In this document: positions 22,571-46,494 of the stretch, one piece after another
How positions within the stretch are numbered: the stretch's first letter is position 1
How the letters are laid out: each line of letters starts with the position of its first letter
DNA from: an uncultured Gammaproteobacteria bacterium
GTDB lineage: Bacteria; Pseudomonadota; Gammaproteobacteria; UBA9214
DNA length: 64,000 nucleotides
Direction of reading: 5' to 3'
Assembly (NCBI GenBank): GCA_963748215.1
Contig: CAVVHS010000009.1
Coordinates: 288,001 to 352,000, forward strand
Notes under the pieces: generated by a model
Seen by the model: the letters and a program-made list of their open reading frames with translations, nothing else
The model's database searches: none
Told to the model about the DNA's origin: nothing
Made by a program: the position numbers and the translations under genes

Positions 22571-22646
22571 GGGTCGTTAGCTCAGTTGGTAGAGCACCGG
22601 ACTTTTAATCCGATGGTCGTTGGTTCGAATCCAACACGACCCACCA
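22571..22646 (+). tRNA. tRNA-Lys(TTT), intact; integration target
   Basis: 76 nt GGGTCGTTAGCTCAGTTGGTAGAGC...CTTTTAA...GGTTCGAATCC...CGACCCACCA; cloverleaf; encoded CCA. Confidence 0.97.
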
Positions 22647-22689
22647 TTAAATCAATCAGTTACCTCTGATTTTCCAAATCAGTAAAAAC

Positions 22690-22947
22690 TGATTGTGGGG
22701 ATTTTGCGGGGATTAACCGTAAACCTTCCTCGTTGGTAAAATTTCGCCTGTAATAAAATCAATTGGTTGCACGTTAGTAACAGACTCGAACCGTTATTCT
22801 CTGGACCAAAAATCCGATGCTCGTATAAACACGCAGATGTTGTGAAAAATGCATGAGTTTTATCTCGAACTCCATGACATGCATGTATAGATCAATGACT
22901 GTGGTACAGATATGTAACCCGCCATTCAATGCTTAACCACTATCGCT
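22690..22947. repeat. Conserved island left-end block (258 bp, identical to 30066-30323; diverged shorter copies after 40389 and 47216)
   Basis: Direct comparison; contains TGTGGGGATTTTGCGGGGA and IHF consensus AATCAATTGGTTG. Confidence 0.92.
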
Positions 22948-22961
22948 GGAGGAGAGCCTGT

Positions 22962-23390
22962 ATGAAGAAGATCAAGGAGGTTTTGGATGCCAAGGGTCGT
23001 GATGTACTGTCGATTGCCCCGGAGGCCTCTGTATACGAAGCCGTCACTCTCATGGCCGAGCGGGGAGTCGGGGCGCTGCTGGTGATGGAGGGTGACAGGT
23101 TCGTCGGCCTGGTTGGCGAAAGGGATTGTCTGTTGAAGGTGATGCTGGAAGACCGATCCCCGCGAGAGACCGAGGTCAAACAATTAATGGCGAAAAATAT
23201 TCTCTGCGTCAAACCCGAGCAGACGGTGGAGGAAGGGATGGCCTTGATGACCGATAAAAGAATCCGCCATCTACCGGTCGTCAAAGGAGATCGGGTGGAA
23301 GGCATCATTTCCATCGGTGACCTGGTCAAGGCGATTATTGCCGACCAGCAGTTTGTGATTAAACAGCTGGAACACTACGTCACCAGCTGA
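22962..23390 (+). CDS. CBS domain-containing protein
   Basis: RBS GGAGG; two CBS repeats, RIRHLPVV, IISIGDLVK. Confidence 0.9.
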   Translation: MKKIKEVLDAKGRDVLSIAPEASVYEAVTLMAERGVGALLVMEGDRFVGLVGERDCLLKVMLEDRSPRETEVKQLMAKNILCVKPEQTVEEGMALMTDKRIRHLPVVKGDRVEGIISIGDLVKAIIADQQFVIKQLEHYVTS

Positions 23391-23495
23391 CTCAAGGCTG
23401 AACGCGCTCTAAAGCCGTACATGTCCGGGTTCGATGCCTGGAAAAAGCAATGCCGAGGCTGCCATCACCGTGACCACGGCCAGGAACACCAGCAG

Positions 23496-24605
23496 CTAAC
23501 GGTTACCGGCGTAGCCGCTGAGTTCCAGGTAACCTCTGCCAGTGTGACTGCCGGATACATCGACCGCGCCTTCCCAGTAACGCACGCTGTGATCCATCTG
23601 CTGATCATCAAGCAATGCCTGGACTTCAAGATCCAGCTGAAACCCGTCCACCTGCAGGCGCCAGCTAACCGGATAGCGCGCACCGTCTTCGGCCTGCCAG
23701 TAACGCAAGGGTGTGAGCTTTACCTGGTCGGGCAGCAGGGTGCGAACGCCGCCGTCTTTTTCCACCAGGCTGCCACGGCTGAACGGGTGCGCCTCGCCCT
23801 GCTTGTTGCGCAGCTGGTAGTACATCACCTCTCGGCCATCATCCAGTTGCAGGGCAAACCAGTCCCATCCGGCCTGGGTCCTGTCAAGCGCGGAGCTGGA
23901 CCACTCGTGATCCATCCACGAATCGCCCTGCACGGTGTAAACCGTATCGCCAGTGCGCAGCTCGCCGCGTGTCGGCAGACGCGTAAAAGAATAGTAGTAA
24001 GAGGCATTGCCGGGTGTTGCACTTTTGCGCGACAAGCCGTGATCGCCCTGCAGGACCAGTGGCTTGTCGCCTGACTGCAGTTGCAGCGAAAAACCGGTGT
24101 CCTCGTTCTGCGCCGATACGGTCAACGGAAACAGGCCGGTATCCGCATGCATCGACCAGGGCCCCAGCCACACTTCATACGGCGCTACGCGGGCGCCGGC
24201 GAGGCCTGCCGCCGCGCGTGCAAAACGTTCGGCCGAATAATGCCTGGCTTCGTCGATGTCGCTGATCGCCATGTGCCCCATGTAGATCTGGTTGGTTCGC
24301 CACATCGAATCCTTTACAGGTTCCCCGGGGCGCAGCCCGACACGAAACAGCGTGAACTGGTAACCGAACCGACGCCCGCTTTCACTCTGCAGATTACCTG
24401 TCAGGTACCACCACTCGGTGGCGAATTCGGGATGTGCGCCGTGATCCTGCGGGAACTGGAAATCCCGTGGTTCAAGCGCACGCGCAAAACCGGGATCAGG
24501 TTCCGCTCCCAGCACCTGGTCCACGCGCACCATCGGCGCGGTTGCCGGCGGCCCTGTTTCGCAGGCCGATACAAGCAACGCCAGCAACAGCAGCAGGCAG
24601 CGCAC
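23496..24605 (-). CDS. AttH/CrtC-like lipocalin-domain lipoprotein
   Basis: Lipobox LVSAC, FPQDHGAHPEFATEWWYLTGNL, SWMDHEWSS, YWEGAV. Confidence 0.85.
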   Translation of the reverse strand: MRCLLLLLALLVSACETGPPATAPMVRVDQVLGAEPDPGFARALEPRDFQFPQDHGAHPEFATEWWYLTGNLQSESGRRFGYQFTLFRVGLRPGEPVKDSMWRTNQIYMGHMAISDIDEARHYSAERFARAAAGLAGARVAPYEVWLGPWSMHADTGLFPLTVSAQNEDTGFSLQLQSGDKPLVLQGDHGLSRKSATPGNASYYYSFTRLPTRGELRTGDTVYTVQGDSWMDHEWSSSALDRTQAGWDWFALQLDDGREVMYYQLRNKQGEAHPFSRGSLVEKDGGVRTLLPDQVKLTPLRYWQAEDGARYPVSWRLQVDGFQLDLEVQALLDDQQMDHSVRYWEGAVDVSGSHTGRGYLELSGYAGNR

Positions 24606-24607
24606 TG

Positions 24608-27109
24608 TCAGTCTTCCCTCAGTTGCGGTGCCGGGTCGCGATGCGCGGAACGCCATGCCGGGTAGACAGCGGCAAGCCCCGCAGCCAGCAGCCCGACCAG
24701 CAGCGTCTGCAGCAGCAGCCCGCTATCAACGCTGAATGGCATTGTCCAGCCGAATGCACGCCGTTGCACCGACTGGATCAGGACCCACGCCATGAGCACG
24801 CCGGTGGGAATTGCCACACACGCGGCCAGCAGTCCCATCAGCAAGGACTCGCCGCCGATCAGTCCTGCGATCTGGCCGCGTGTCAGTCCCAGCGCACGCA
24901 ACACGGCATACTCCCTGGCGCGTTCAAGCTGCAGCGCCATCAAGGCGCTCAACACACCGATAAACGCGACAGTCAGGGACACGGCGCGCAACACTTCGGT
25001 GACGCGGAAGGTGCGGTCGAAGACGGCCATGGATTCGTTCAGTATGGCGCCTGCGGGCGTCTGCACGATGGCGTAGCGCGCGGCGAGTTCACTCAAATCG
25101 CGGCGCATTTTATCCACTTCGCCGTTACGCGCAAACAGGGCCAGCGTGTTGACCTGCTGCTCGGGCCAGTACTTGCGGTAGACGGTTTCATCCAGAAAGA
25201 TGCGGCCGTGTTCGCTGGCATAGTCGCGGAATACAGCCGCCACCTGAACGGCCAGAGGGCCTCTGGGTGTTGGCAGTTCCAGGCGCGAGCCGGGCGTCAG
25301 GCCGAGGTGGTAGGCCAGTGGTTCGGAAACCAGCACCGCACCCCTGTCAAATTCCTTCCATGCCGACCGTGCACCGCTCAACAGCACAAAGCCGCGGCGC
25401 GACGGCGCGGCCAGGTGCGCCCCGACGAGTTCCACGCGCCGGCCGGCCAGCGGCAGCTTGCGCTCGCTGTAACGGCTGATCGCCGCCACGGTCCCCAGCC
25501 GGGACACTTCGTGCAGGACGGCTTCAGGCAGATATGCACCTTCATCAAAGCCTTCGGCCGCTACATAGAGGTCTGCACTTAACAGGTCGCTCAGCCAGGT
25601 GTTGACCGAACCACGCATGCTTTCCACCATGACACCGACACCGACGCTGGCTGACAACGCCACCATCAGTGCCGCAACGGCAATACCCAGGCGCGACAAA
25701 TGCCGGTCCAGATCGCGCACGCCCATCCGCCAGATACCGGGCAAGGACGCACGCGCCAGTAGCCGGTACAGCACGCGGATCATCAGGGGTGTCATCATGG
25801 CCGCGCCCAGCACCAGCGCAAACAAGCCGGCAAAGCTCATGATCACGCCGCCCGGTAAAACCAGTGCCAGCAGCAAGCCCGCCGACAACAGCACCAGACC
25901 GAGCAGCGCGCACAGGGGGACGCCGCGCTGCACGGCCTGCTCCAGTGCCGCCCGCGAGAGTGTCGTCAACGGGGGCGTACGTGCGGCTTGCCAGGCGGGC
26001 ACCAGTGTCGCCAGCAGGGTCGCCACCACGCCCAGGCTGGCGGCGATCAACAGTGACCTCCAGTCCAGGTGCAGGGCCGTCACGCTGACCGTGTAGTAAA
26101 GGTCGCTGACGGTAGCCGCCACCAACCGGGTCAGCCCCTGGCCCAGCCACACACCGAGCAATATCCCGATCAGCGTGCCGAGCACGGCAACGATCGCGGC
26201 TTCCAGCAGGATCAGGCTGAACAGTTCCCGCGGCGTCACACCGATGGCGCGCAGCCGCCCGAACAGGTTGCGCCGCTGCACCATGGAAAAGGTCATGGCG
26301 TTGAAAATAAGAAACATGCCGACCAGCAGCGCCAGCAGGCTCATCGCGGTGAGGTTGAGCTCGAATGCCGCTGACAGGCGTGTCACACCCTGCGCCTGTT
26401 CGGCGACTGTCTGCAACTGCACGCCGGCGGGGATGCGCTGCCTGACCCAGCGTTCGCCGGCGGCATCCAGTATCAGGTCCACGTAGCTGAGTTGCCCGTT
26501 CATCTCCAGAATGGATTTGGCGGTGGCGATATCGACCAGCAGCAGGTCGTCACCGGCAGTGCTGTGCCGCGTATCGATACGCAGCACATCGAGCATGGTG
26601 GACCTGCCCCGGTGAACGATGTCCAGCCTGTCACCTGCAGCGACATCGAGCGCGCGCGCCGTTGCCGCGCCAAGCACCAGCGCACCTGCCTGTGTCAGCC
26701 AGTCTGCGGTGAAGCCCGCGCCGGTCGACACCTCGGCAAGCTGACTGCGGAACGGCGCCTCGGCAAACAGGTCAAAGCCCACCAGGTGATAACGTCCCGT
26801 GCCGCCTTCGACCCTGACCCAGCCGCTCACCACCGGCGCCATGGGCGGTGCGCCGGGCTGGCGTTGCAGGCTGATATACACCTCATCGGGTAGCTCGGCG
26901 CCGGGCACGGCAAGGCGATGTGTGGCTTCGCCCTGCAACTGTCGCGCGGACAGCTCGAAGGCGGCACGCGCACCGCTGTTGGCCAGGTCCACCGCCAGTA
27001 CCACCGCAACACCCAGTGCGATGCCGGACAAGGCCAGCAGACCCTGCCAGCGATGGCGCAACATATAGCGCAGTCCGGCACGCAACAGCAATGGCGAGAA
27101 ATATCTCAC
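24608..27109 (-). CDS. FtsX/MacB-like ABC permease (AttG-like)
   Basis: Two FtsX repeats, GIALGVAVVLAV, RLRAIGVT, VLRALGLT. Confidence 0.88.
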   Translation of the reverse strand: MRYFSPLLLRAGLRYMLRHRWQGLLALSGIALGVAVVLAVDLANSGARAAFELSARQLQGEATHRLAVPGAELPDEVYISLQRQPGAPPMAPVVSGWVRVEGGTGRYHLVGFDLFAEAPFRSQLAEVSTGAGFTADWLTQAGALVLGAATARALDVAAGDRLDIVHRGRSTMLDVLRIDTRHSTAGDDLLLVDIATAKSILEMNGQLSYVDLILDAAGERWVRQRIPAGVQLQTVAEQAQGVTRLSAAFELNLTAMSLLALLVGMFLIFNAMTFSMVQRRNLFGRLRAIGVTPRELFSLILLEAAIVAVLGTLIGILLGVWLGQGLTRLVAATVSDLYYTVSVTALHLDWRSLLIAASLGVVATLLATLVPAWQAARTPPLTTLSRAALEQAVQRGVPLCALLGLVLLSAGLLLALVLPGGVIMSFAGLFALVLGAAMMTPLMIRVLYRLLARASLPGIWRMGVRDLDRHLSRLGIAVAALMVALSASVGVGVMVESMRGSVNTWLSDLLSADLYVAAEGFDEGAYLPEAVLHEVSRLGTVAAISRYSERKLPLAGRRVELVGAHLAAPSRRGFVLLSGARSAWKEFDRGAVLVSEPLAYHLGLTPGSRLELPTPRGPLAVQVAAVFRDYASEHGRIFLDETVYRKYWPEQQVNTLALFARNGEVDKMRRDLSELAARYAIVQTPAGAILNESMAVFDRTFRVTEVLRAVSLTVAFIGVLSALMALQLERAREYAVLRALGLTRGQIAGLIGGESLLMGLLAACVAIPTGVLMAWVLIQSVQRRAFGWTMPFSVDSGLLLQTLLVGLLAAGLAAVYPAWRSAHRDPAPQLRED

Positions 27110-27114
27110 GGCAT

Positions 27115-27852
27115 TCAGTCTGCCGCTACCTGCCCGTGGCTCAGACGCAGAACCCGGTCGGCCGCCTGAGCAACATATGTGCTATGCGTTACCAGCAGCA
27201 TGGTCGTTCCCTGCCGCCTGGCCAGGCCGGTGAGCAACTCGATGATCCGGCCGGCGCTATCCTCATCCAGGTTGCCGGTGGGCTCGTCGGCCAGCAACAG
27301 GTCGGGCCGGTGCACCAGCGCGCGGGCGATGGCGGCGCGCTGCTGTTCACCGCCCGACAGTGTTTCGGGAAAACGATGCTCCAGACCGCCGAGTCCGACA
27401 TCTTCCAGCAGATCGGCAGCGCGTTGTTGCGCTGCGGAATTGGCATTACCCAGCAGTTCCAGCGGCAGGGCAATATTCTCACCCACCGTCAGGGTCTGGA
27501 TAAGGTTGAAAAACTGGAATACGAAACCGATACGCCGGCGCCGCAACAGGGTGCGTTCGGGTTCCGCCAGTGCGTGTACATCGACACCGTCCAGCCACAC
27601 GTTACCGCTGTCTGGGCTGTCGATACCGCTGATCAGGTTGAGCAGGGTCGTCTTGCCACTGCCACTGGCCCCCAGCAAGGCAACCGTTTCGCCTTTCCCG
27701 ACGCTGAACGTCAGCCTGTCGAATACCACTTGTCGCGTGCTGCCGGACCAGTACACCTTGGCTAGATTGTCGACACCTACCATGCTCACCTGGATACTGC
27801 CCGCGTTGCCAAACAATTCCGTTGACATCATACACTGCTGCACGTCATGCAC
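27115..27852 (-). CDS. ABC transporter ATP-binding protein (LolD/MacB-type); true start may be downstream (e.g. 27783)
   Basis: GASGSGKT, GFVFQFFNL, LSGGEQQR, LADEPTGNLD. Confidence 0.9.
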   Translation of the reverse strand: MHDVQQCMMSTELFGNAGSIQVSMVGVDNLAKVYWSGSTRQVVFDRLTFSVGKGETVALLGASGSGKTTLLNLISGIDSPDSGNVWLDGVDVHALAEPERTLLRRRRIGFVFQFFNLIQTLTVGENIALPLELLGNANSAAQQRAADLLEDVGLGGLEHRFPETLSGGEQQRAAIARALVHRPDLLLADEPTGNLDEDSAGRIIELLTGLARRQGTTMLLVTHSTYVAQAADRVLRLSHGQVAAD

Positions 27853-27963
27853 TTACCCCTGTGCCAGGAGGGGACCGGGGTCCACTTCAATGAATAGAGA
27901 ATAGGGGACAAACCGCGTTTTTCAATACGGAAGAATAGGGGACAGACCACGTTTAGGGAAGAA

Positions 27964-28801
27964 TAGGAAGAATAGGGGACAGACCACGTTTTTCAATCTG
28001 ATTTGGCGGGTCTTCCCGGGTTTCTACGTGTAACACGTCGTTGCAGCATGTGGGAGATCTCAGACTTAAAGCGTTCATTACCCAGAGCATAGTTACCATG
28101 CGAAGCAGTCCGGATCTCGGCAAGCAGATCGGGGTCTATAGCTGTGTGAAACAGGCCACGGTAATTGGCAAGACGCGTTTCTTCACTCCCTCCGAGTGCC
28201 AGGTATTCTGCGTGTGGCGTCAGGCCGTCGTGCTGTGCGCCTTGACCGTTAATCCTGTAACTTGACCACTGATATTCTGCCGGGTGCTCTACCATGACTG
28301 CGCGAACCGGGTTCAATTCGATATATCGGTAACAGGCAAGTACATAGTGACTTTCCTGAACCAGACAGGAGCGAAAACGGCCTTCCCAAAGCGTTCCGCT
28401 GCGCTGGTAGCGACGGTTACTGTATTGGACGTAACGCTGACCAAGCTGTTTCATGAGCAGAGCGGCGCTATCACGCGCTGCTGGGGTAAGGAGCAGGTGT
28501 ACATGATTCGTCATCAGGCACCAGGCATGTACACTGCAACGATATCTAGCGCCCTGCTCAGCCAGGGTATCAAGGTAATACTGGTAATCGCAGTTGTCGT
28601 AGAAGCAGGGGCTGCGATTATTGCCGCGCTGGATGATATGCCAGGGAATGCCAGGAATGACCAGGCGGGCACGGCGTGGCATAAGAATAACCTTGTTCAA
28701 TTTAGAGTAAGAGTTGAATGGTGAATGCATGAATACGGCGGTTATGTAGTGAATGTGCGTGAAGGTGCGTCAGTAATTGACGAAAACGTGGTCTGTCCCC
28801 C
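27964..28801 (-). mobile_element. Y1/HUH transposase element, copy 1, with 18-bp inverted repeats
   Basis: GGGGACAGACCACGTTTT (27975-27992) / AAAACGTGGTCTGTCCCC (28783-28800); extra left-end copies at 27904 and 27938; identical to 45297-46134. Confidence 0.88.
27993..28682 (-). CDS. REP-associated tyrosine transposase-like (Y1_Tnp, IS200/RAYT superfamily)
   Basis: MPRRARL...HIIQRGNNR, HUH motif LMTNHVHLL, LWEGRF, YIELNPVRA. Confidence 0.92.
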   Translation of the reverse strand: MPRRARLVIPGIPWHIIQRGNNRSPCFYDNCDYQYYLDTLAEQGARYRCSVHAWCLMTNHVHLLLTPAARDSAALLMKQLGQRYVQYSNRRYQRSGTLWEGRFRSCLVQESHYVLACYRYIELNPVRAVMVEHPAEYQWSSYRINGQGAQHDGLTPHAEYLALGGSEETRLANYRGLFHTAIDPDLLAEIRTASHGNYALGNERFKSEISHMLQRRVTRRNPGRPAKSD

Positions 28802-28809
28802 TTTTTCAG

Positions 28810-28895
28810 ATCGATAATGCGGGACTCACGAAGTACTACGATGAAATAGTCTCAGTCGAGGAAACTTGAAGTTTCAAGTCGGATGCTAAGGTCCA
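28810..28895 (+). pseudogene. Relic of a haloacid dehalogenase (HAD) gene
   Basis: Translates IDNAGLTKYYDEIVSVEET*SFKSDAKV, resembling the HAD 'AGL..FD.IVSVE...FKPDP.V' segment, with an in-frame stop. Confidence 0.5.
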
Positions 28896-29054
28896 CCGGT
28901 CGGTTATGGGGGTGACCTTGAATGTTCGCTGATGGACGTAGATTCGCAGTCCCAACTCAAGACGTCATACCGTGATGGCACCACGGGGGAAACCCAGGGG
29001 ACGTTCGTCAAATAGTCAAAATAAAGTTAAAACAGAAATAGCGGATTAATTATT

Positions 29055-29453
29055 CTATTTGTCGGCCAAACTTTCCCACAAGCCTCTGGGTGTGATTATG
29101 GGTAGCCCTTCCACGCTTTCCAAATTCAATAAGGCCTTATCTCCTGTGACGAACACATTGGCGTTGCCCGCCAGCGCGGCGGCAAGAATTGCTTCGTCAT
29201 CAGGATCAGGAAGTTTCGGCAAAGGGTGTTCGGCGGCTATAACCTGACCCTCTGTGCGGAGTAGTGCAATAAAGCCATTAGTGATCGCTTCTGTCTGACC
29301 CAGTTTTTCTGGGAGGATGCGTTGTAGTTCTCTAAAGACGGCTTCGGAGATTAATAGATCGTGGGACTGGAGAACCACTTCAAAGAGTTCAGCGCACAGT
29401 CCACGTGTTGTCAAGGCGCTGGCCAATACATTGGTATCCAGAAATATCCGCAC
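29055..29453 (-). CDS. PIN-domain toxin (VapC-like)
   Basis: RIFLDTNVLASA, DPDDEAIL, FVTGDKALL. Confidence 0.9.
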   Translation of the reverse strand: MRIFLDTNVLASALTTRGLCAELFEVVLQSHDLLISEAVFRELQRILPEKLGQTEAITNGFIALLRTEGQVIAAEHPLPKLPDPDDEAILAAALAGNANVFVTGDKALLNLESVEGLPIITPRGLWESLADK

Positions 29454-29665
29454 TAGATGTCCCGAAAGACATCTTCATCGGTAACATACCCGGCAGCCTC
29501 CGCCAGTGGTAGCGCCTTATGGCGTAAGGCACGAAAACGTTCTACGGCGATGCGTTTACGCAGCATCTCTCTTGCCAGATCACTTTTAGTGCGGTGCTGG
29601 GCCTTGGCTAGCTGGTCAAGGTCTTTTTCCAGTTCGTCGTCGATACGGATGGTCAGGGTGCCCAT
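29453..29665 (-). CDS. Ribbon-helix-helix (CopG-like) antitoxin
   Basis: MGTLTIRIDDEL...TKSDLARE; coupled to the PIN gene; near-palindrome TGTATTACATTGTAGTACA upstream (29693-29711). Confidence 0.88.
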   Translation of the reverse strand: MGTLTIRIDDELEKDLDQLAKAQHRTKSDLAREMLRKRIAVERFRALRHKALPLAEAAGYVTDEDVFRDI

Positions 29666-29780
29666 GGGGTCCTCCAAGCAAAGAAGTTTATCTGTATTAC
29701 ATTGTAGTACAGCGACGGGCGGGGAGACAGCCTTTAATGCGGATTACTGGTTTAATGACAGAAAAGGTGCTGAAAATGCC

Positions 29781-30088
29781 TGCGGGAGTTTTGCGGGACT
29801 GGGTGCAGCACCGTTATGCACGGTACTGCATTTTAGGCAACGGACGCCCCGGTATTATGTTATATAAAACAATTAGATAGGTCGTGATTCTCGGACTTTT
29901 AATCCGATGGTCGTTGGTTCGAGCCGAGGACGACGCAGTCGGCCGAGACAACAGCGTCGCATCAGCGACGCTGACCCCGAAGGGGCGAGGGCGCAGCCCG
30001 AGTAATCCAACACGACCCACCATTAAATCAATCACTTAATTCCGATTTTTCATCCCGGTAAAAATTGATTGTGGGGATTTTGCGGGGA
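29781..30088 (+). repeat. Island junction 1: arm repeat, tRNA-Lys 3' half (29892-30022) with 82-nt T-loop insertion (29923-30004), IHF site, arm repeat
   Basis: CGGACTTTTAATCCGATGGTCGTTGGTTCGA[82 nt]ATCCAACACGACCCACCA, matching the tRNA outside the insert. Confidence 0.93.
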
Positions 30089-30315
30089 TTAACCGTAAAC
30101 CTTCCTCGTTGGTAAAATTTCGCCTGTAATAAAATCAATTGGTTGCACGTTAGTAACAGACTCGAACCGTTATTCTCTGGACCAAAAATCCGATGCTCGT
30201 ATAAACACGCAGATGTTGTGAAAAATGCATGAGTTTTATCTCGAACTCCATGACATGCATGTATAGATCAATGACTGTGGTACAGATATGTAACCCGCCA
30301 TTCAATGCTTAACCA

Positions 30316-31617
30316 CTATCGCTCTTCAGGCGCCTTCCAGGATTGTAATCGGTCGAGCGTATCGATGCTGCCGATCAGCTTTCGAGCGCGTCGCAGCCGT
30401 TCCATGGTGTGCTCTCGCTGATCTTTTGGTAAGTCTTCCAATCTCCGTTCTGCGTCAGCGAAGAACGCCTCGAGTTGTTTTGACGTGGCCCATGTTTCGA
30501 TGATCTCGAGCAGTTCCTCTTTGCTGTCTTTAAGGGCCTTTGCGGCACGTCTCTCCGCCTCTTCGCGATGCCATTGCTCCATTTGGGCGGCCCAGCGCTG
30601 GCGCTCCCGTTCTGCTTCGCGTTCGCCTTCTTCAACCAGGCGCGCGATGTCAATCGTGGCTTTGGTCAGCGCGCGTACAATCGCGGGGATTCGGGTGGAG
30701 AGATCGCGATGGTTTGTTTCCCGCCATTGCTGGGTCCATTGCGCGCGCGGGTAGGGTGAATAGGCTTGCAGACATAATCGGCCGGTCGGGAAATCTCGCC
30801 TGCTGGTCCAGCCGCTATCCGCTACATAGCGGCCACGCCGTTGCGGGACGTAGTCACTCACCCGTACATACTCACCTTTGACATAGCGCACCTCGACGTT
30901 CTCGGACAGCTCGATGATGGTAAGACCAATCGCGACGGTCCCGATATAGACGACGGTGCTGCGCTGCGGTGACCAGAGGTTGTTGTAATGGTGTTGTTTC
31001 TCCGGATGCTCCCGTTCATCGACTGTTGCCCTGTGAAATTGCTCTGTATTCGGTGCGATGAGTACCCGGTGCCCGCGCGTTTCCAGTGCAAGAAAGAGCT
31101 GGTTGGCAAAGGACAGGGCCTTGTCCAGGCCGGTTTTCGTCACAACCAGATCAATGAGCAGCCTTTTCGCGGGCTTCAGGTAGCCTGCGGAATAGGAGAG
31201 CCGGCCTACCTCGAAGTGTGATTTCACCTCGGTGGTCAGCGGATGTCGATCCGGGAGCGGTTGGTGATGTTTGTGTGCTTTGCGGTCTTTCTTGTCCGGT
31301 GGCTTCGGTTGCGGTCGTGCGCGCCTGGGTGGTGTGCCATCGCGTGACCACTCGAGTGGATCGCCGGGTCGCGCTTCCGGGAAGGCTGGCTGTGTGGATG
31401 CCTTACCGACTGCCAGTTTTGCCCAATAGCCGCGCTCAGGTCGTGGCACGTTGAGCTGGGTACAGACCCGGGCCATGTAGCTTGATGAAACACCGAACCG
31501 GGCCGCCACCTTGAGCATCGGCTCGGCCCAGACGAGTGCGTACAGCGCTTCCCGTGTGACTTTCGAGTCGTCTTGCGTGGGGTCTGGTGGTGAGTGCTTA
31601 CCGTTTCCGGGATTCAC
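30316..31617 (-). CDS. Hypothetical protein with N-terminal HTH-like region and C-terminal coiled coil
   Basis: 433 aa; TREALYALVWAEPMLKVAARFGVS...PRPERGYWAK; cotranscribed after abiEii. Confidence 0.8.
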   Translation of the reverse strand: MNPGNGKHSPPDPTQDDSKVTREALYALVWAEPMLKVAARFGVSSSYMARVCTQLNVPRPERGYWAKLAVGKASTQPAFPEARPGDPLEWSRDGTPPRRARPQPKPPDKKDRKAHKHHQPLPDRHPLTTEVKSHFEVGRLSYSAGYLKPAKRLLIDLVVTKTGLDKALSFANQLFLALETRGHRVLIAPNTEQFHRATVDEREHPEKQHHYNNLWSPQRSTVVYIGTVAIGLTIIELSENVEVRYVKGEYVRVSDYVPQRRGRYVADSGWTSRRDFPTGRLCLQAYSPYPRAQWTQQWRETNHRDLSTRIPAIVRALTKATIDIARLVEEGEREAERERQRWAAQMEQWHREEAERRAAKALKDSKEELLEIIETWATSKQLEAFFADAERRLEDLPKDQREHTMERLRRARKLIGSIDTLDRLQSWKAPEER

Positions 31618-31654
31618 GATACTGTTCCAACCGCAGCGAGATCAGCGCACTACA

Positions 31655-32581
31655 CTACGATTCTTCCAGCCAAGGTCCACCTTCTTTCCAGCGCGCATCG
31701 AATTTCAATCCTTGTCGGGCGGCTGCTGTCGGTGGTCGCAGAAACGCTGCCAGGAACTCGCACACGTCCGTAAGCAACGGTCCGTCTCCGTCTGTGGATA
31801 CTCTCGACAGGAATGCCTTCCACTGGCTGTTCTTTGCCCGGTCGCTCGCGAAGTCGGGACCGAGACCGGATGGCGTGTCTTCTGGCAGCTCGGTTCGCCG
31901 GCGTGCGAATGTATTGCCTATCGCTTGGGCATGTGACTCGCCCTGGTAATCAAAATCCCGCGCCATCACCCACAGGTCGTAGAAATCCTTCATCCGACTA
32001 TTGGCCATGCCCAGTGCAACGAGTGCCTGGTACTTCTCGGCAATCACGGTCTCGCGCGGATAGGCCCTGAGCCTTGGGGCAGGGCCACCCAGTAACGTTG
32101 GATACTCCATCACGACTGTTTCCGGTGTCACAGCGTCACCGAATCCGATGTCCGCCTGGATCGGGATCCGTGCACCGGCGAGCTGCCCTGTCAGCGTGAC
32201 CCGCATGCCACCGTACTCGGTGTCGTCCCGGATGGATTCAACGCGAAGGCTTTCCGGGTCAAACGTGACGCTGTCTCCCTGAGCGGACATGGCGCACAGA
32301 TCGCGGAAGACCTCGAGTAAACCCGTTTCGCTGCTGTCGCCAGAGCCAAGAAAGTCGACATCCCGGGTCGGCCGGTGCGGATTGCGACTCCATAGAATGA
32401 ACAGCATGGCCCCTTTCAGTACGAAGCGATCTTGATGGGGCGAATGGCTCAGGCGGTAGAGGAGGCGCTCCAGACCGTAGCGCGTCAGCAGCAGCTGGAA
32501 ATCCTCTCCACGCTCACGAGCGAGGGCAAGCAGCCGGTCCCGGGCGGATGCTGCAGAATTATTCTTCTCAGAGGGACTCAC
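31655..32581 (-). CDS. abiEii: AbiEii/AbiGii nucleotidyltransferase toxin (type IV TA)
   Basis: ERLLYRL, FVLKGAML, RPTRDVDF, AEKYQA, NSRMKDFYDL; GTG overlaps abiEi TGA. Confidence 0.9.
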   Translation of the reverse strand: MSPSEKNNSAASARDRLLALARERGEDFQLLLTRYGLERLLYRLSHSPHQDRFVLKGAMLFILWSRNPHRPTRDVDFLGSGDSSETGLLEVFRDLCAMSAQGDSVTFDPESLRVESIRDDTEYGGMRVTLTGQLAGARIPIQADIGFGDAVTPETVVMEYPTLLGGPAPRLRAYPRETVIAEKYQALVALGMANSRMKDFYDLWVMARDFDYQGESHAQAIGNTFARRRTELPEDTPSGLGPDFASDRAKNSQWKAFLSRVSTDGDGPLLTDVCEFLAAFLRPPTAAARQGLKFDARWKEGGPWLEES

Positions 32582-33180
32582 GCGGCCAGGGATTCCAGGT
32601 AGGGCCGCATGACGTTGCGAACGCGGCAGACATCGGCGTAATGCCAGAGGTCGTCCATTTTGCAACGGCGTTCTTTCCAGCATTCCCGAAGGGCCTCGAT
32701 CGCAACGTCGAGACCGATCTTGTTCCTGTACTTGAAGCAGTCGGCAACCGTTTTGGCCGGATTGAAGATGCGCACAGGCACACCTCCCAGTTTCTTGACA
32801 ACGACCCCTTCATCGAGCGCCGTCTCCGAAAAATGCACGATGCGCAGGCGGGGATGCACGCCCCGAGGTCGCCAGGCCTTTTCGCCGATTGCGATCCATA
32901 TTTCGAAAGGCGCCTGGGTGGTCAGCTCGTGAAAGCGGAGCGCGGATAGCAGACAGATCACGCCATTGGGAACGCGCTTTGCGGCTTCGGCGAGCGTGCG
33001 GTGCTCTGTGGCGCCTGTGGCCGGAAGTACGTACAAACCGCGCCCGATGCGCTCCAGGCGCCCGGCTTTGTGGAGACGGCTCAGGTAAGTTCGGGGTATG
33101 CCCAGTGGCTCGAGGTCGCGCGGCCGCAGTACCCCGGCATCCCGGACGAGCTCGAGCACCCTATTTGCCTGTTCGGACAT
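32578..33180 (-). CDS. abiEi: AbiEi-family antitoxin/transcriptional regulator
   Basis: wHTH LERIGRGLY, VICLLSALRFHELTTQ, KTVADCFKYRNKIGLDVAIEAL. Confidence 0.9.
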   Translation of the reverse strand: MSEQANRVLELVRDAGVLRPRDLEPLGIPRTYLSRLHKAGRLERIGRGLYVLPATGATEHRTLAEAAKRVPNGVICLLSALRFHELTTQAPFEIWIAIGEKAWRPRGVHPRLRIVHFSETALDEGVVVKKLGGVPVRIFNPAKTVADCFKYRNKIGLDVAIEALRECWKERRCKMDDLWHYADVCRVRNVMRPYLESLAA

Positions 33181-33249
33181 GGGCCAAATGTTACATTACC
33201 TCGGGGAATATGCAAATACCCCGAGGTATCGTAACATCAACTTTGGCCC
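33181..33249. promoter_or_regulatory. Long inverted repeat upstream of abiEi (probable autoregulatory operator)
   Basis: ATGTTACATTACCTCGGGG-12 bp-CCCCGAGGTATCGTAACAT, extended by GGGCCAAA/TTTGGCCC. Confidence 0.7.
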
Positions 33250-33386
33250 AGTCAGGACATGAAGCCGCGCTGAGGGCTGAGTGAACTCGGGTAATATCTG
33301 GAGAGCTAATTACGCGAAGCAAGGGGGATTCATGGAGATTTTCCGGGCAGGTGATTGATGAATTGCGTAAGGGAAGCTAGACGATC

Positions 33387-34841
33387 ATGAGTCTGGACTT
33401 CAACACGCTGGATTTGCTGCGTCAGACTCATCCGGCGTGGCGGCTGCTAAATTCACCCCACGCACCACTGGTTGTGAGTTTTCTGCATCGGGCCTTCATC
33501 GATCCCAACGAGAGGGTGATCGCACAGGCAGACCTGGTGGAAAAACTGGAAGATGAGCTGTTTACACTGCGTGAACAGTTGGGTGATGAGATTTTTCCAA
33601 AGGCTGCACTGGAGTATCTGAATGACTGGGCCGGTAATGACAAGGGCTGGTTGCGAAAATTCTACCGCCAGGGTTCGGATGAGCCGTATTTTGACCTGAC
33701 GCCGGCCACAGAAAAGGCCGTCGCCTGGCTTGGTACCCTGACCGAGCGAAACTTTATCGGAACCGAGTCGCGTCTGTTGACGCTGTTCGAATTGCTCAAG
33801 CAGATCAGTACAGGCAGCGAGACCGATCCGCTAGTACGAATTGCCGAGCTGCAGAGGCGCCGTGATGAAATCGATGCCGAGAATGCTCGTGTGCTCGAGG
33901 GTGATATACCACTGCTGGACAACACGGCGCTGAAGGACCGCTTTCAGCAGTTCATGTTGATTTCGAGGGAATTACTCTCTGATTTTCGTCAGGTGGAGCA
34001 TAATTTCCGGTTGCTGGACCGGGGGGTGCGAGAACGGATCGCACTGTGGGAAGGAGGCAAGGGAGAATTGCTGGAGGAAATCCTGGGTGAGCGCGACACC
34101 ATTGCTGATTCTGATCAGGGACGCAGCTTTCGTGCATTCTGGGACTTCCTGATGTCCAGCGCACGACAGGAAGAATTCAGTCATTTGCTGGATCGGGTAT
34201 TGGCCCTGCCGGCGGTTGCCGAACTCAATCCGGATGCCCGTACCCGGCACGCACACTATGATTGGCTTGAGGCCGGTGAACATACCCAACGAACCGTGGC
34301 CCAACTTTCGCAACAGCTGCGCCGTTTTCTCGACGATCAGGCCTGGCTGGAGAATCGTCGCATTATGGAGATACTGAGAAGCATCGAAAGCAAGGCGCTG
34401 AGCGTGCGCGCGAGACCGCCGGATGGTGAGGTTGCAGTGATTCCGGCTATCGGGGTTGATATCGAACTGCCGATGGAACGACCGCTGTATTCACCGGCGC
34501 TGAAGATGCGAATCGCCGATCTCATCCTTGATGCAGAAGAGGCGGAGGTGGATGCCGCAGTGCTTTTTTCCCAGGTCGCTATCGACAAGGCGAAACTGTC
34601 GACGCATATCCGTCGTGCCCTGCAAGAAGTTCCGCAAATTACTCTGCAAGAACTGTGTGCACGATGGCCTCTCCAGCACGGATTGGCTGAACTGGTCGCC
34701 TATCTCGAGTTGTCGTGTGAAGATTTCAGATACACGATTGATGAGGCAGAGCAGGACAGTATCGTTTGGTGGGGCACGAGTCGTGATGGAGTGAAACAAA
34801 AGAAGCAGGCACAGCTTCCGCGGGTGATATTCGTTCGATGA
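33387..34841 (+). CDS. jetA: Wadjet JetA (DUF3375)
   Basis: HPAWRLL, GTESRL, SDQGRSFRAFWDFL, HGLAELVAYL; first of a four-gene overlapping operon. Confidence 0.88.
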   Translation: MSLDFNTLDLLRQTHPAWRLLNSPHAPLVVSFLHRAFIDPNERVIAQADLVEKLEDELFTLREQLGDEIFPKAALEYLNDWAGNDKGWLRKFYRQGSDEPYFDLTPATEKAVAWLGTLTERNFIGTESRLLTLFELLKQISTGSETDPLVRIAELQRRRDEIDAENARVLEGDIPLLDNTALKDRFQQFMLISRELLSDFRQVEHNFRLLDRGVRERIALWEGGKGELLEEILGERDTIADSDQGRSFRAFWDFLMSSARQEEFSHLLDRVLALPAVAELNPDARTRHAHYDWLEAGEHTQRTVAQLSQQLRRFLDDQAWLENRRIMEILRSIESKALSVRARPPDGEVAVIPAIGVDIELPMERPLYSPALKMRIADLILDAEEAEVDAAVLFSQVAIDKAKLSTHIRRALQEVPQITLQELCARWPLQHGLAELVAYLELSCEDFRYTIDEAEQDSIVWWGTSRDGVKQKKQAQLPRVIFVR

Positions 34842-35503
34842 ACAGCGAACAGGAAACCGGGATAACAGGTGCGGCACAGGGCCTGTCATCTCTGGTCATT
34901 CCCTTGCTCAAGGGCGTGATCTATCGCGATGAAGCAACCGCGCGTGGCACCGGCCAATGGAACGCTCTGCTCGATCTGCAGGCACGAGTGCGCGATTATG
35001 TATCCGTGATAGGTTTGGAACTGGTGCTGGACGAGGCCGAAGGTTATGCCTTCCTGCGTGCGCGTGGTCATGAGGATGAAGAGAGTGCGAAAAAATTGCC
35101 ACGCCTGGTGGCACGCCGGTCACTCTCGTTTCCGGTCAGCCTGTTGCTGGCCCTGTTGCGCAAGAAGCTGGCTGAGTTCGATGCAGGTGGTGGCCAGGAC
35201 GTGGAGGCGGGCAGGTTGGTGATGTCACGTGATGACATTGTCGAACTGGTGCGCGTTTTCCTGCCCGACACCAGCAACGAAGTCCGTTTGATGGATCGTG
35301 TGGATGGCGATATCAACAAGGTTGTCGAGCTGGGTTTCCTGCGCCGTATGCAGCCGCAGCCGGGGCAGCAGGCCCCGGAATTCGAGGTGCGCCGCATCCT
35401 GAAGTCCTTCGTCGATGCGCAATGGCTGGCTGAATTCGACGCACGTTTGGCTGCCTATCAGGCGCAACTTAGCGAGCAGGAACCCGATAAACGTGATGTC
35501 TGA
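34838..35503 (+). CDS. jetB: Wadjet JetB (DUF4194)
   Basis: [34 protein letters not shown]. Confidence 0.88.
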
Positions 35504-38500
35504 ATCTCCGCATACACCCGGACTGGATTTTGTTGCCGACGATACCCTGACGGGCTTTCGGCTGCAGCGGCTGGAGGTCTATAACTGGGGTACCTTTGAT
35601 AGACGAGTCTGGATCTTGCAAGCCGACGGCAACAATGCGCTGCTGACGGGTGATATTGGATCTGGCAAATCGACTCTGGTCGATGCCGTCACGACCCTGC
35701 TGGTGCCAGCGCACCGTGTGGCCTACAACAAAGCCGCCGGCGCCGACAGCAGAGAGCGGACGCTCAAGTCCTACGTCCTGGGTTATTACAAGACGGAGCG
35801 TAGTGAAGTCAGTGCCGCGGCAAAGCCCGTTGCCCTGCGTGATAACAGCAACTATTCAGTTATCCTCGGTGTGTTTCATAACGCCGGGTACGATCAGACA
35901 GTGACCCTGGCGCAGGTATTCTGGATCAAAGACGCGCAGGGGCAGCCTGCGCGTTTTTTTGTGGGTGCCGAGCGGGGTCTTGCCATCGCGAGCGACTTTG
36001 CCGGTTTCGGTACAGAGATAGTCTCGTTACGCAAGCGCTTGCGTGGAGAGGATGTTGAAGTGTTCGACAGCTTCCCACCCTACGGTGCCTGGTTCCGGAG
36101 ACGTTTCGGAATCGAAAACGAGCAGGCAATGGAGCTGTTTCATCAGACCGTTTCCATGAAATCCGTGGGCAATCTTACCGAGTTTGTCCGCAACCATATG
36201 CTCGAGCCATTTGATGTGATGCCGCGCATCGCGGCTCTTATCGCACACTTCGATGACCTGAATCGTGCTCACGAGGCGGTTCTCAAGGCCAAGCGACAGA
36301 TTGAGTTGTTGATGCCACTGGTGGCTGATTGCGATCGCCACCTGGAAGTGGCCAGTTCCACAGAAGATCTGCGCGGTTGCCGCGAGGCCTTGCGCATGTA
36401 TTTTGCAGTACTCAAGCTCGAACTCCTGGAGCATAGGATTACCGGACTGGGGGAGGAATGGGCGCGTCAGAACTTGCGCATCCAGGACCTCACGGAACAT
36501 CGGGATGCGCAACGTGCCCGGATTGTTGAGTTTAAACAAAGTATTGCCGACAATGGTGGCGACCGGCTGGAACGTCTCACGGAAGAGATGCGCGTCAAGG
36601 CGAGTGAGCGTGACGTTAGAAAGGCCAAAGCCGATCGCTACGCGGACCTGGTGCGAGCCGCCGGCGGGCATCCAGGTACGGATGCGGCTGCCTTCCAGGG
36701 ACAACACAAGGAATTCCAGCGTCAATTGGAGCTGTCCGCTGCGCGTGAGGCAGAACTGCAGAATGCACTGACCGAACAGACCGTGGAACTCCGTCAGTGC
36801 AAGCAGCAACATGACCAGCTCACGGCTGAGATCGACAGCCTGAAGGCCCGGCGCAGCAATATCCCTGCTGAACAGATCCGAATGCGCGACGCCCTGTGTG
36901 ATGCTCTGAATTTGTATACTGCTGACCTGTCGTTTGCCGGAGAGCTGCTGCAAGTGCGTGAGGATGAGCGGGACTGGGAGGGGGCTGCCGAGCGGTTGTT
37001 ACATAATTTCGGCCTGTCATTGCTGGTACCGGATGCCCATTACCAACGGGTCTCGGAGTGGGTGGATCGTACCCATCTGCGTGGCCGTCTGGTCTACTTC
37101 AGGGTGCGCGCTGGCATCCGTGGTGAGTTGCGGGCGCTGCACACTGATTCTCTGGTGCGCAAGCTTGCGATCAAGCCCGATACACCGTTTTACGAGTGGC
37201 TCGAAAGCGAGCTCGTGCGCCGTTTCGACGTTGCCTGCTGTGCAACCGGTGAGCAGTTCCGGCGTGAGACAAGGGGTATTACCCGGGCGGGCCAGATCAA
37301 GTCACCTGGCGAACGCCACGAAAAGGATGACCGACACCACATCAATGACCGCCGCCGTTATATATTGGGCTGGACCAATACCGGCAAGATTGCCGCCCTG
37401 GAGGCCGAACAGCGGCAACTGGAGATGCGGTTGGGCGAACTGGGGAGTCGCGTCGCGAAGGTGCAGTCCGGGCAGGCCGCCCTCAGCAAGCAGCGAGATC
37501 TGTTGCTGAAACTCGATGAATATCGCGATTACCGGGAGCTGGACTGGTGTTCTCTGGCCGCCGAGGTGGCGCGGCTTGAAGAGGAGAAACGGCAGCTGGA
37601 GAGTGCCTCTGACATGCTCAGGGAACTGACCGGCCAACTGAATGCGCTGGCACAATCATTAACTGCAACCGAGAAACAGCTGGAGGAGCGCCTGGCCGGG
37701 CGGGCCAGAACCGAGCAGAAACAGGAGGACGCCGCTGCCCTGCAGGTGCAGACCCGGACATTGCTTGCAGAACCGGTGGTTCAGGCCCATGAGGTTCGAT
37801 TCACGGCCTTGGATAAACTGCGTGCCGAGGCCCTGGGGGAGCATCGATTGACCGTGGAGTCCTGCGACAACCGCGAGCGTGACATGCGCGAATGGCTGCA
37901 GGCTCGAATCGACGCAGATGAATCACGTCTTAAACGGCTGGGTGAGAAGATTATTCGCACAATGACCGAATACAAGGAGGCCTTCCGGCTGGAAACGGCG
38001 GAGGTGGATGCCAGTATCGAGGCGGCACATGAGTACAGCGCAATGCTGGTTGCACTACAGGCTGATGATCTGCCGCGTTTCGAGGCGCGCTTCAAGGATC
38101 TGCTTAACGAGAACACCATCCGCGAGGTGGCCAACTTCCAGTCGCAACTCGCCCGCGAACGCGAGGAAATCAAGGAGCGCATCACGCGCATCAACGAATC
38201 GCTGGCGCAGATTGACTACAACCCGGCACGCTACATAAAAATCGAACCCCGGCCGAGTACAGATGCCGAGATTCGAGACTTCCAAAACGAGTTGCGCGCC
38301 TGTACCGAAGGTGCGCTAACCGGTTCCGAAGATGCGCAGTATTCAGAAGCCAAGTTTTTACAGGTCAAGCATATCATCGAGCGTTTTCGCGGGCGTGAGG
38401 GCCAGACTGAGTCTGATCGCCGCTGGACTGCCAAGGTGACTGATGTACGCAATGGCTTTACATTCGCTGCCAGCGAGCGCTGGCGCGAGGATGATAGCGA

Positions 38501-38873
38501 GCACGAACACTATTCCGACTCGGGCGGGAAGTCAGGTGGTCAGAAGGAGAAGCTCGCCTACACCATCCTGGCCGCCAGTCTGGCCTATCAATTTGGGCTG
38601 GAATGGGGAGCAGTGCGCTCGCGATCGTTCCGCTTCGTGGTGATTGATGAGGCATTCGGGCGTGGCTCGGATGAGTCCGCGCAATACGGCCTACGGCTGT
38701 TCGCGAAACTCAATCTGCAACTGTTGATCGTCACACCCCTGCAGAAAATCCACATCATAGAGCCCTTCGTTAACAGTGTCGGTTTTGTCCACAACGAGGA
38801 CGGCCGAGCCTCCATGCTACGCAATCTCACCATCGAGGAGTACCGGGAGGAGAGAGCGAGGGCTGTCCAGTGA
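35496..38873 (+). CDS. jetC: Wadjet JetC, SMC-like ATPase
   Basis: YNWGTFD, Walker A GDIGSGKS, long coiled coils, KSGGQKEK signature, VVIDEAF. Confidence 0.92.
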
Positions 38874-40078
38874 ACTGGACCGGTCCCCGTGAACTGCATG
38901 TGCAATTACTGCGCTGTTGGAATCGCGGTGATCTGCTGACCGGAATGGTTTCCGGTGAATCAATATTCCCCCAACGATTGACATTGAAAGCACCCACATC
39001 CGCACAGATGACGGATGACTTCGACAAGGTGCGCGACTGGATCGCCGCCTTACGCTCACTGCCACACTACCGGATCGAGATGCGCGAGGTGCGTCATCGG
39101 GTACTCGGCGCAAACGAGGTGCCGGCGGCAGTCTGGGTGGATACTCTCGACGATGCCCTGGCCATATTGGGTAAATCCCGTGAGGCCAAACGTTTCGCGA
39201 GTATGGTCGAGCGTACTCGACTGCGGCAACCTCTGCTGCTCGAATGGCTTGCCTGCAAGCCGCTCAAGGCGCACGAGTTGGCTGAGGTCTGGGATCGGCT
39301 CCTGGATGTAACCGAGTGGGTCCAGCAGCACCCTCGTCCGGGCATATACCTGCGACAGATTGATATCCCCGGAGCCCATAGCAAATTCATCGAGGCACAC
39401 AGGGGCGTTCTGCTCCAGTGGCTGGACCGGCTCTTGCCGCCTGAGGCTGTCAATAACAGTGCCACTGGCGTCTCCGGGTTTGCCAGCCGGTACGGATTTC
39501 GTGACAAGTCCCAGCGTATTCGTCTGCGTGCGCTAGATCCCGAGCATGCACTATTACCGCGGTCGGTGAATGCGGACATTACTCTGGATGCTGAAAGCTT
39601 TGACTCCCTGTCGCCTGCAGTTTCACGGGTATTTATCACGGAGAATGAGATCAATTATCTGGCTTTCCCGCCGGTGCCAGACAGCCTGCTGATATTCGGC
39701 GCCGGTTACGGTTTTGAGGTGCTGGCACAAGCTGCATGGTTGGCTAGCTGCCAGGTGTATTACTGGGGTGACATTGATACACACGGTTTCGCGATACTGG
39801 ATCAGCTGCGCGCATATCTGCCCCATGCGCATTCCCTTTTAATGGACCGTGATACGCTACTGGCCTTCAAGGCCCAATGTGGCAGGGAGGAAAAACAGAC
39901 GCTTCGGGACTTGTCTCGCCTGAATACTGAGGAGCGCGCACTGTACGATGACCTGAGAGACAACCGTCTGGGCAAGAATTTGCGCCTGGAGCAGGAACGC
40001 ATCGGATTCGGCTGGGTCGAGAATGCACTGGCTTTATTGCTGTCTCGCAAGCAGATTTCCAGCATGGAAAATGGTTGA
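38870..40078 (+). CDS. jetD: Wadjet JetD Toprim nuclease (DUF3322/DUF2220)
   Basis: [38 protein letters not shown]. Confidence 0.9.
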
Positions 40079-40149
40079 GGGTACAGGAGGAAGAGCTGGC
40101 CCTGCGCGGACCTTCCAGCATTTTGTCTGTATTGCTGTCGCCATTCCTC

Positions 40150-40455
40150 TGTGGGAGTTTTGCGGGACTCGGTTATGCATCGTCCTGCATCGTGGTGCAC
40201 AGATCGCAACGGGCGCTACGGTAAGTTGTTGAATAAAAAGGCTGAAAAATCGCCTTTCTGTACTTTTAATCTGATGGTCGTTGGTTCGAGCCGAGGACGA
40301 CGCAGTCGGCCGAGACAACAGCGTCGCATCAGCGACGCTGACCCCGAAGGGGCGAGGGCGCAGCCCGAGTAATCCAACACGACCCACCATTAAATCAATC
40401 ACTTAATTCCGATTTTTCATCCCGGTAAAAATTGATTGCGGGGATTTTGCGGGGA
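40150..40455 (+). repeat. Island junction 2: tRNA-Lys 3' half (40262-40389) with 82-nt insertion (40290-40371) and flanking arm repeats
   Basis: Same architecture as junction 1; insert identical. Confidence 0.93.
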
Positions 40456-41585: not shown

Positions 41586-41610
41586 CCGCTGATACAACGG
41601 GGCAAGGGGC

Positions 41611-46490: not shown

Positions 46491-46494
46491 ATCA

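Follow-up and report, generated by a model that had tools for sequence, protein, structure and literature searches.

Organisation of the tRNA-Lys locus

The window, i.e., the whole 64,000-nt stretch of DNA analysed, corresponds to positions 288001–352000 of contig C9 in a genome of 3.5 Mb with 60% G+C. Its sole tRNA gene is a working tRNA-Lys(ttt) at 22571–22646 (+), called by ARAGORN and by the Rfam tRNA model (76.7 bits); at curated Rfam cut-offs, the tRNA was the only match in the whole window. The gene reads GGTTCGAATCC, with an uninterrupted T-loop and no insert, and contains the only uninterrupted tRNA-Lys 3′ part in the genome. It anchors an array of cassettes on its downstream side, whereas only housekeeping genes (tolB, pal, cpoB and queC) were found upstream.

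The left-end arm (P′) of cassette 1 (22647–22830, +) follows the tRNA directly and comprises the tRNA terminator hairpin, a GGGGATTTTGCGGGG repeat and GACTCGAAC; it matches the arm after joint 1 at 97% identity over 320 nt. GACTCGAAC is an inverted T-loop-like motif approximately 136 nt past the CCA, and the motif is present in seven of nine arms. Written as GAYTCGAAC, it was located at 22783–22791 and in six other left arms, 89–136 nt past the CCA and near the start of the cargo, and it parallels the inverted T-arm copy found in the mini-units described below. The cargo of cassette 1 (22831–29739) encodes a CBS protein, a CrtC-like lipocalin, a MacB/FtsX-ABC pair, an IS200-like Y1 element and a PIN toxin according to Pfam, and no integrase. 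A type-A right-end arm with TGCA-CGT repeats (29740–29891, +), homologous to a junction arm in the sister genome G047, closes the cassette.

Joint 1 consists of a tRNA-Lys 3′-half fragment running from the anticodon stem to A58 (29892–29922, +; 31/31 nt identical to the working tRNA), an 82-nt insert (29923–30004, +) and the last 18 nt of tRNA-Lys from A59 to the CCA (30005–30022, +), a repeat shared with the working tRNA and present as exact copies at five places on C9. Cassette 2 (30023–40261) contains a left arm, a 433-aa protein without a Pfam match, AbiEii, JetABCD (Wadjet) and a type-B right arm (Pfam). It ends at joint 2, where a relic tRNA-Lys half with one mismatch (40262–40289, +) precedes the second insert copy (40290–40371, +) and the 18-nt tRNA-Lys 3′ end (40372–40389, +). 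Cassette 3 (40390–47088) carries an MscK-like channel, a second IS200-like copy, a ParE toxin and another type-B right arm (Pfam). At joint 3, the relic half has two mismatches (47089–47116, +) and is followed by the third insert copy (47117–47198, +) and the 18-nt 3′ end (47199–47216, +); cassette 4 then extends past the window end, the next joint being at C9:360709. The first genes after the left arms, at 30316–31617 (−, 433 aa) and 40826–41551 (−, 241 aa), had no Pfam matches; the 433-aa gene is kept along with cassette 2 in G051, G023 and G012.

All three tRNA-Lys 3′ halves in the window are split at the same point, GGTTCGA^ATCC, and each insert copy has GGTTCGA on its left and ATCCAACACGACCCACCA on its right. 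The first two copies are identical (two window matches at zero mismatches, with 0 expected), and the third has four substitutions, which placed it beyond the three-mismatch search. The coordinates, the sequences and the position of the split in the first-pass annotation were confirmed, as was its description of two identical copies, one copy with four substitutions and an intact tRNA without the insert.

Across the genome, eight joints containing the 82-mer were found, all on the + strand of contig C9 between 317923 and 408761, forming one 98-kb array. The first insert copy lies 7.4 kb past the tRNA-Lys start, and the successive joints are spaced by 10.4, 6.8, 25.6, 1.7, 13.1, 25.2 and 8.0 kb. 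The repeated joint spans approximately 420 bp and includes the right-end arm (ca. 150 nt), the tRNA-like half, the insert, the last 18 nt of the tRNA and the left-end arm (ca. 180 nt). Joint 6 (C9:375460–375594) has a left relic half with a CAT anticodon loop and a T-stem like that of tRNA-Met or tRNA-Ile, together with a Lys-type right 18 nt; judged by these two parts, it is a hybrid.

None of the eight tRNA-Lys cassettes encodes an integrase, as a PF00589 profile search gave five matches in the genome and none on contig C9. Resolvases (PF00239) had no match in the whole genome, and genes of the IS110 type (PF01548) and for RT (PF00078) occur elsewhere in the genome, with none near this array or the two further arrays on contig C6 described below. 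No protein recurs across the cassettes of the three arrays except for a decayed transposase and the IS200-like element. Frameshifted copies of the former, which we take from its sequence, with no Pfam call, to be a DDE (rve-like) transposase, were located at C9:370555–371713, C9:389101–389478, C6:35332–36388 and C6:869618–869923, i.e., in four cassettes of three arrays. The IS200-like element (843 bp, with a 245-aa Y1 transposase) occurs in two copies that share 99.9% identity, at 27959–28801 and 45292–46134 of the window (C9:315959–316801 and C9:333292–334134). In metagenome contigs from three runs, approximately 785–791 bp are skipped at the IS200-like site; the insertion is polymorphic, with empty sites in these contigs.

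Of the other joints in the metagenome contigs, two (30031>40158 and 30095>40493) were set aside because they may be repeat-induced, and a back-joint (29881>22597) with a depth of 2.3 was used for no claim. Conclusions were drawn from covered positions alone, and two RNA runs contained at most 0.08 of the sequence words of the stretch. A further joint (29921>30004), found in one contig with a 27-nt side and ca. 92% alike, belongs to a related organism and only agrees with the occurrence of cassette-2 homologues behind uninterrupted halves.

Identity of the insert

A joint was first aligned to the RtT family (RF00391) through a permissive Rfam scan. The RF00391 model matched the three window copies over its full length (positions 1–130) with 32.7, 35.8 and 32.6 bits, respectively, and genome-wide E-values of 4e-5 to 2.6e-4, below the curated cut-off of 45. 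In the genome as a whole, 25 matches were obtained at E up to 1, seven of which exceeded the cut-off (45.9–61.2), and the scores formed a continuous series. A covariance model, R1, was trained on Lys, Glu and Ser(tga) copies from this genome and no others; it gave 127.5 bits for copy 1 and 121.4 bits for copy 3, and in E. coli K-12 it recovered four of four RtT units (42.1–45.3 bits, E 3e-8 to 1.7e-7). Detection was therefore reciprocal, RF00391 picking up the window copies and R1 the E. coli units. No ribozyme or riboswitch family was found near the insert in Rfam at E up to 10.

The layout agreed as well. At the tyrT-tyrV-rttR locus of E. coli K-12, the same arrangement occurs four times: GGTTCGA, a core of approximately 68–72 nt and then ATCCTTCCCCCACCACCA. 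In the window as in E. coli, the core sits between the 5′ part of the T-loop (GGTTCGA) and the last 18–19 nt of the adjacent tRNA, and the hairpin order and the joining motifs (CGAGAGAACG-type, CCCGAAGGG and GAGTAATCC) are the same. These matches identify the 82-nt insert as the core of the RtT family in a variant form. The window copies are a variant because they lack both the 170–180-bp tandem unit and its upstream GGAT-GAGAA strand, which is complementary to the tRNA 3′ end: they lie 7–10 kb apart, and the type-B joints have no such strand. In contrast, sibling units at Glu, Gln and Ser possess both the short-unit form and the GGAT-GAGAA strand. Whereas the E. coli units are ca. 178 bp long, cargo-free and located inside a tRNA operon, the window copies mark joints 7–25 kb apart between cargo cassettes; they retain a long relic tRNA half in the position of the upstream strand, and their scores remain below the Rfam cut-off.

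Two other Rfam families were matched by relatives of the insert. Arg-type units at C6:879–884 kb (L015 and L018) scored 41.5 and 40.5 against RF02902 (AaHKsRNA22, Aggregatibacter sRNA 22; cut-off 39.8), and sX4 (RF02223) weakly matched one Ser unit; the window copies match neither family. RF02902 and sX4 may represent tRNA-linked units of this kind from other taxa or overlap with RtT.

The tyrT repeats and RtT were reportedly first described by Egan and Landy in 1978, Rossi et al. in 1981 and Bosl and Kersten in 1991. A passage of PMC7542023 cites Bosl and Kersten on RtT. In passages of that paper and of a preprint (bioRxiv 10.1101/2024.07.17.603846), the function of RtT (in the former, its exact function) is described as unknown, and the E. 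coli element is treated as an RNA, in line with the rttR annotation; this RNA is reportedly processed. Among the papers searched, none tied RtT to islands or to T-loop insertion. The first-pass annotation had known of no described element of this type and had noted that a match to a described family would overturn its proposal. Since the insert belongs to RtT, its status as an undescribed kind of element falls, and what stands is a known family in a new setting.

Fold and covariation

The row of four hairpins reported in the first-pass annotation was reproduced exactly by the minimum-energy fold with DNA parameters (−24.4 kcal/mol, z −4.33, 0/200 shuffles as good); with RNA parameters, the fold of the insert had a z of −2.88. 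In copy 1, the stems are H1 (29928–29934/29938–29944), H2 (29953–29960/29965–29972), H3 (29975–29978/29982–29985) and H4 (29989–29992/29996–29999). The loops are mostly C-GNA-G or similar triloops, and C-GNA-G triloops form very stable DNA mini-hairpins.

For 70 distinct cores aligned to R1, 91.6% of the cells pair, compared with 73.9% in shuffles and 33%–53% in slid controls, the alignment being fitted to the R1 model and thus favouring pairing. Changes on both sides were seen in 22 of 28 pairs, a level reached by none of 500 shuffles, so the stem covariation for which the first-pass annotation had looked to a covariance model is present. H1, H2 and H4 covary, whereas H3 (CCCC-GMA-GGGG) is almost invariant, and H3 and the joining motifs are nearly invariant even between this genus and E. 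coli. RNAalifold on a plain MAFFT alignment recovered only H2 and H3; H1 and H4 required the model-based alignment. Over H1–H4, 62 G-U pairs were counted vs. nine A-C mismatches. This excess fits a fold on the tRNA-sense strand, which would be read either as RNA or as that strand of DNA.

Distribution of RtT cores

R1 matched 31 sites in the genome, all in tRNA-derived contexts and representing at least 10 tRNA types. The first-pass annotation had recognised that a genome-wide REP at unrelated sites would be fatal to its proposal; such an identity was rejected, as 31 of the 31 copies are in tRNA-derived sequence. The 18-nt tail after the core corresponds to a tRNA 3′ end with at most two mismatches at 24 of the sites. 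The other seven comprise a Lys joint with three mismatches, a tRNA-Gln(ttg) pseudo-copy, a tRNA-Ser(gga) 5′ copy in which the core follows GGTTGA in the D-loop, and four degenerate or offset array members.

Most sites are cargo-free units of 170–200 bp, composed of a tRNA 3′ end, a terminator hairpin, an inverted T-arm copy (GGAT-GAGAA...), GGTTCGA and the core. Contig C6 additionally contains arrays in which RtT-type joints lie 3–28 kb apart, at C6:17191–74427 and C6:836619–884263; their 3′ ends are of the Pro(ggg) and Arg(acg) types. The former array adjoins no called tRNA and may run past the contig start. A selC linkage of the units at 876–884 kb of C6 was considered and rejected, as their 3′ end is that of tRNA-Arg(acg).

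Units were also observed on the 5′ side of tRNA genes. At C6:477160–477660 (−), C5:191653–191754 (−) and on contig C12 of G024 (L081), tandem units of approximately 170 bp lie upstream of tRNA-Ser genes. In each unit, an RtT-type core comes after a copy of nt 1–22 of the tRNA, reaching GGTYGA in the D-loop; these units mirror the 3′-side ones and are conserved in a sister species. At C8:225171–225330 (−), the 5′ part of tRNA-Gln(ttg) (nt 1–58) with an RtT core in the T-loop lies just upstream of the working tRNA-Gln, which is itself followed by a normal RtT unit; the same form was found in G045 (L057).

Beyond this genome, R1 (E up to 1e-4) detected RtT-type cores in 30 of the 36 remaining genomes of the genus, and RF00391 did so in 20 of 150 further families of the class; among 14 control genomes, RF00391 was found only in E. 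coli. A role of RtT as a phage attP was rejected because the single phage record matched by the E. coli unit was a Salmonella chromosome contig annotated ‘RtT RNA’. A plasmid attP was likewise dismissed, the 28 matching plasmid records being all non-mobilizable and several of them chromosome-sized. In five sister genomes, no integrase was found beside a core. An integrase on contig C16 of G024, approximately 4 kb from three Gln units, adjoins tRNA-Met.

Right-end arms and sister species

Type-B arms in the present genome occur at joints 2, 3, 4, 5 and 7 and, less closely related, at joint 8, whereas those of joints 1 and 6 differ. The core-bearing Lys joints of G015, G008 and G044 also have type-B arms. 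Nine type-B arms were tallied with a core and none without, while type-A and similar arms included two with and five without, the genomes being kin, so that this tally is no statistical test. No type-B arm before an uninterrupted half was seen among the joints compared. Type-A arms that are 87%–94% identical to the joint 1 arm precede uninterrupted displaced halves in G015 (three) and G024 (one). At the G047 junction homologous to joint 1, the homologous type-A arm is present and exactly the 82 nt are absent.

A homologue of cassette 2 lies directly behind the working tRNA-Lys in G051 and behind uninterrupted displaced halves in G023, G012 and G047; the arms at these uninterrupted halves in G023 and G012 are unrelated. 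Island X, which precedes an uninterrupted half in G023, has no integrase, and no tRNA-Lys was found within reach on contig C10 of G008. The T-stem halves flanking the core follow the tRNA-Lys allele of the host, GTTGG/CCAAC here and GAAGG/CCTTC in G015, G024 and G008, and in three of the eight Lys joints they do not fully pair with each other. By string count, the relic left halves have diverged by approximately 9.5%, compared with 5.6% for the right 18 nt.

Descent of the cores

In the tree of cores, grouping followed the tRNA type across species rather than the genome. All Lys cores, from the present genome and from G015, G024, G008 and G044, formed one clade with the genomes interleaved. 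This grouping weighs against recent hopping between T-loops and fits old, locus-bound lineages of cores. Within the array, identity to the joint 1 core declines along its length (1.00,.95,.96,.95,.92,.83 and.79), and conservation among the joints is 0.87 for the core, 0.68 for the P arm and 0.82 for the tRNA half. A stretch of 166 nt is the same in joints 1 and 2, although the sequences on either side of it differ; a conversion copy from joint 2 would therefore be the simplest account of the joint 1 core, which stands behind a type-A arm.

Origin of the interrupted joints

The reading we favour, with a probability of roughly 0.55, is that type-B cassettes without an integrase carry an att arm interrupted by RtT, in which the block shared with the tRNA is its last 18 nt. 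The type-B arm would then consist of a relic anticodon arm and the 5′ half of the T-arm, followed by the RtT core and the 18-nt block. Cassettes would be stacked through this block, which lies to the right of the core, so that every joint would retain a core and the working tRNA would never gain one. The data show the family identity, the layout, the covariation, the link to the arm type and the lack of a nearby recombinase; the place of crossover, the stacking route and any role of the folded core are inferred. Stacking might have been performed by a trans-acting integrase, now absent, or by RecA recombination between the joint repeats of approximately 420 bp. The first-pass annotation had suggested, as one of three options, that the islands carry an interrupted attP and can add on only at secondary junctions behind a resident island. 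The interrupted attP gained support, the insert tracking one type of right end, whereas the restriction to secondary junctions is not required, given the 18-nt block to the right of the insert.

Several observations run against an interrupted att arm. The tRNA identity of type-B joints begins in the anticodon loop, the usual mark of a crossover there, and the core would therefore have entered a once-working tRNA. Divergence of the relic left halves exceeds that of the right 18 nt only modestly, and joints 1 and 6 have a core behind arms that are not of type B. The core is separable from the arm, since the G047 junction has a homologous type-A arm without it, and T-stem halves that match the host allele would also fit an insertion into halves derived from the host. 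The sub-threshold RF00391 scores of the window copies and the kinship of the genomes behind the arm tally count on the same side, and the analysis revealed neither an excised circle nor an attP nor a recombinase.

Some of these observations would be accounted for by a tiny non-autonomous element that enters displaced tRNA copies at GGTT(C)GA^A, by a homing-like process or gene conversion, with selection purging it from working tRNAs; we regard this as possible but unlikely. Such an element, also raised in the first-pass annotation as targeting T-loops, would explain the fixed 58/59 position in many tRNA types, and the insertion point is indeed the same in at least 10 of them. The core further occurs after GGTYGA in the D-loop of tRNA-Ser 5′ copies and within a full-length pseudo-copy of tRNA-Gln(ttg) that precedes the working gene, the G047 counterpart of joint 1 lacks exactly the core, and joints 1 and 2 share 166 nt within different flanks. 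The core is also better conserved (0.87) than the P arm (0.68) and the tRNA half (0.82), and the flanking T-stem halves follow the host allele. However, the grouping of cores by tRNA type across species weakens this explanation and shows no trace of recent jumps between tRNAs. In G015 and G024, displaced halves without an interruption still exist alongside joints that bear a core, the presence of the core tracks the arm type, no candidate enzyme was found, and none of the 31 copies lies outside tRNA arrays.

It is more doubtful still that the core acts as a folded single-stranded DNA signal, such as an attC-like recombination site, a HUH nicking site or a priming or origin signal. The DNA-parameter fold into exactly four hairpins (z −4.33), the predominance of C-GNA-G and similar triloops and the integrase-free cassette-array layout, which recalls integrons, would agree with such a signal, and the mismatched T-stem halves in three of the eight Lys joints could mean exchange at or within the core. 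Nevertheless, no IntI and no tyrosine or serine recombinase was found near any array, and the layout is unlike attC, which is a single bipartite hairpin. The Y1/HUH genes of the cassettes belong to two copies of a single 843-bp IS, for which metagenome contigs show empty sites, and both the rttR annotation and published passages treat the E. coli homologue as an RNA. The single-stranded DNA or HUH signal that the first-pass annotation had listed as its third option hence received no specific support, the nearby IS200-like Y1 genes being an ordinary duplicated IS. Least probable of all is a core without a present role, left by one old insertion or duplication and passively amplified with tRNA-linked repeats through unequal crossing-over: tandem identical units do exist (two 169-bp Glu units and the E. 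coli units), the Lys cores have one ancestor and no enzyme was found, but compensatory changes in 22 of 28 pairs with pairing kept at 91.6%, the near invariance of H3 and the joining motifs between the genus and E. coli, and the spread of the family, which reaches 30 of the 36 remaining genomes in the genus and, at class level, 20 of 150 further families, all argue against it.

Comparison with known systems and implications

The array resembles tandem islands of the Islander type in that, behind a working tRNA, direct repeats of the tRNA 3′ part delimit successive islands. It differs from them in that none of the eight cassettes has an integrase and all eight displaced fragments are interrupted, whereas the sister species show the standard uninterrupted form. 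Integrase-less accretion of the CIME type offers another comparison for tRNA island arrays. For Islander-type integration, the abstract of PMC4383910 describes a regenerated target and a displaced fragment.

Like integron arrays, the cassettes have promoter-poor cargo, often comprising toxin-antitoxin or defence genes, with a folded repeat closing each cassette, and are added beside a fixed anchor. In contrast to an integron, the anchor is a tRNA gene with tolB-pal-cpoB-queC upstream and no IntI, and unlike attC, the repeat comprises four hairpins inside a tRNA mimic. The core shares with REP/BIME repeats accompanied by RAYT and with palindromic mini-elements derived from IS200/IS605 its short, GC-rich, hairpin-forming character, and Y1 transposase genes are present in the genome. 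Unlike REP/BIME, it is not dispersed (31/31 in tRNA contexts), and its copies group by locus rather than as a burst; unlike IS200/IS605 mini-elements, it shows no recent spread among unrelated targets, and the Y1 genes of the window belong to the separate 843-bp IS.

RtT has been catalogued for decades. The present genome shows its core in two forms, a short cargo-free unit and the joint of integrase-less cassettes of 1.7–25 kb with Wadjet, AbiE, PIN and ParE genes. Tools for finding islands would miss such arrays because they expect uninterrupted displaced tRNA fragments and integrases. The link between the two forms makes it testable whether RtT units serve as recombination or att blocks that build tRNA-linked islands. 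As a speculative extension, which we hold to be unlikely, RtT units might be the att sites of a tRNA-anchored gene-cassette system. The unit of approximately 170 bp would then be a cargo-free cassette, and the tRNA-Lys array and the two arrays on C6 would be the loaded form with defence and toxin-antitoxin genes, moved by a host-encoded or trans-acting recombinase or by recombination between folded joint repeats. If this were true, the tyrT repeats of E. coli would be the stump of such a cassette system.
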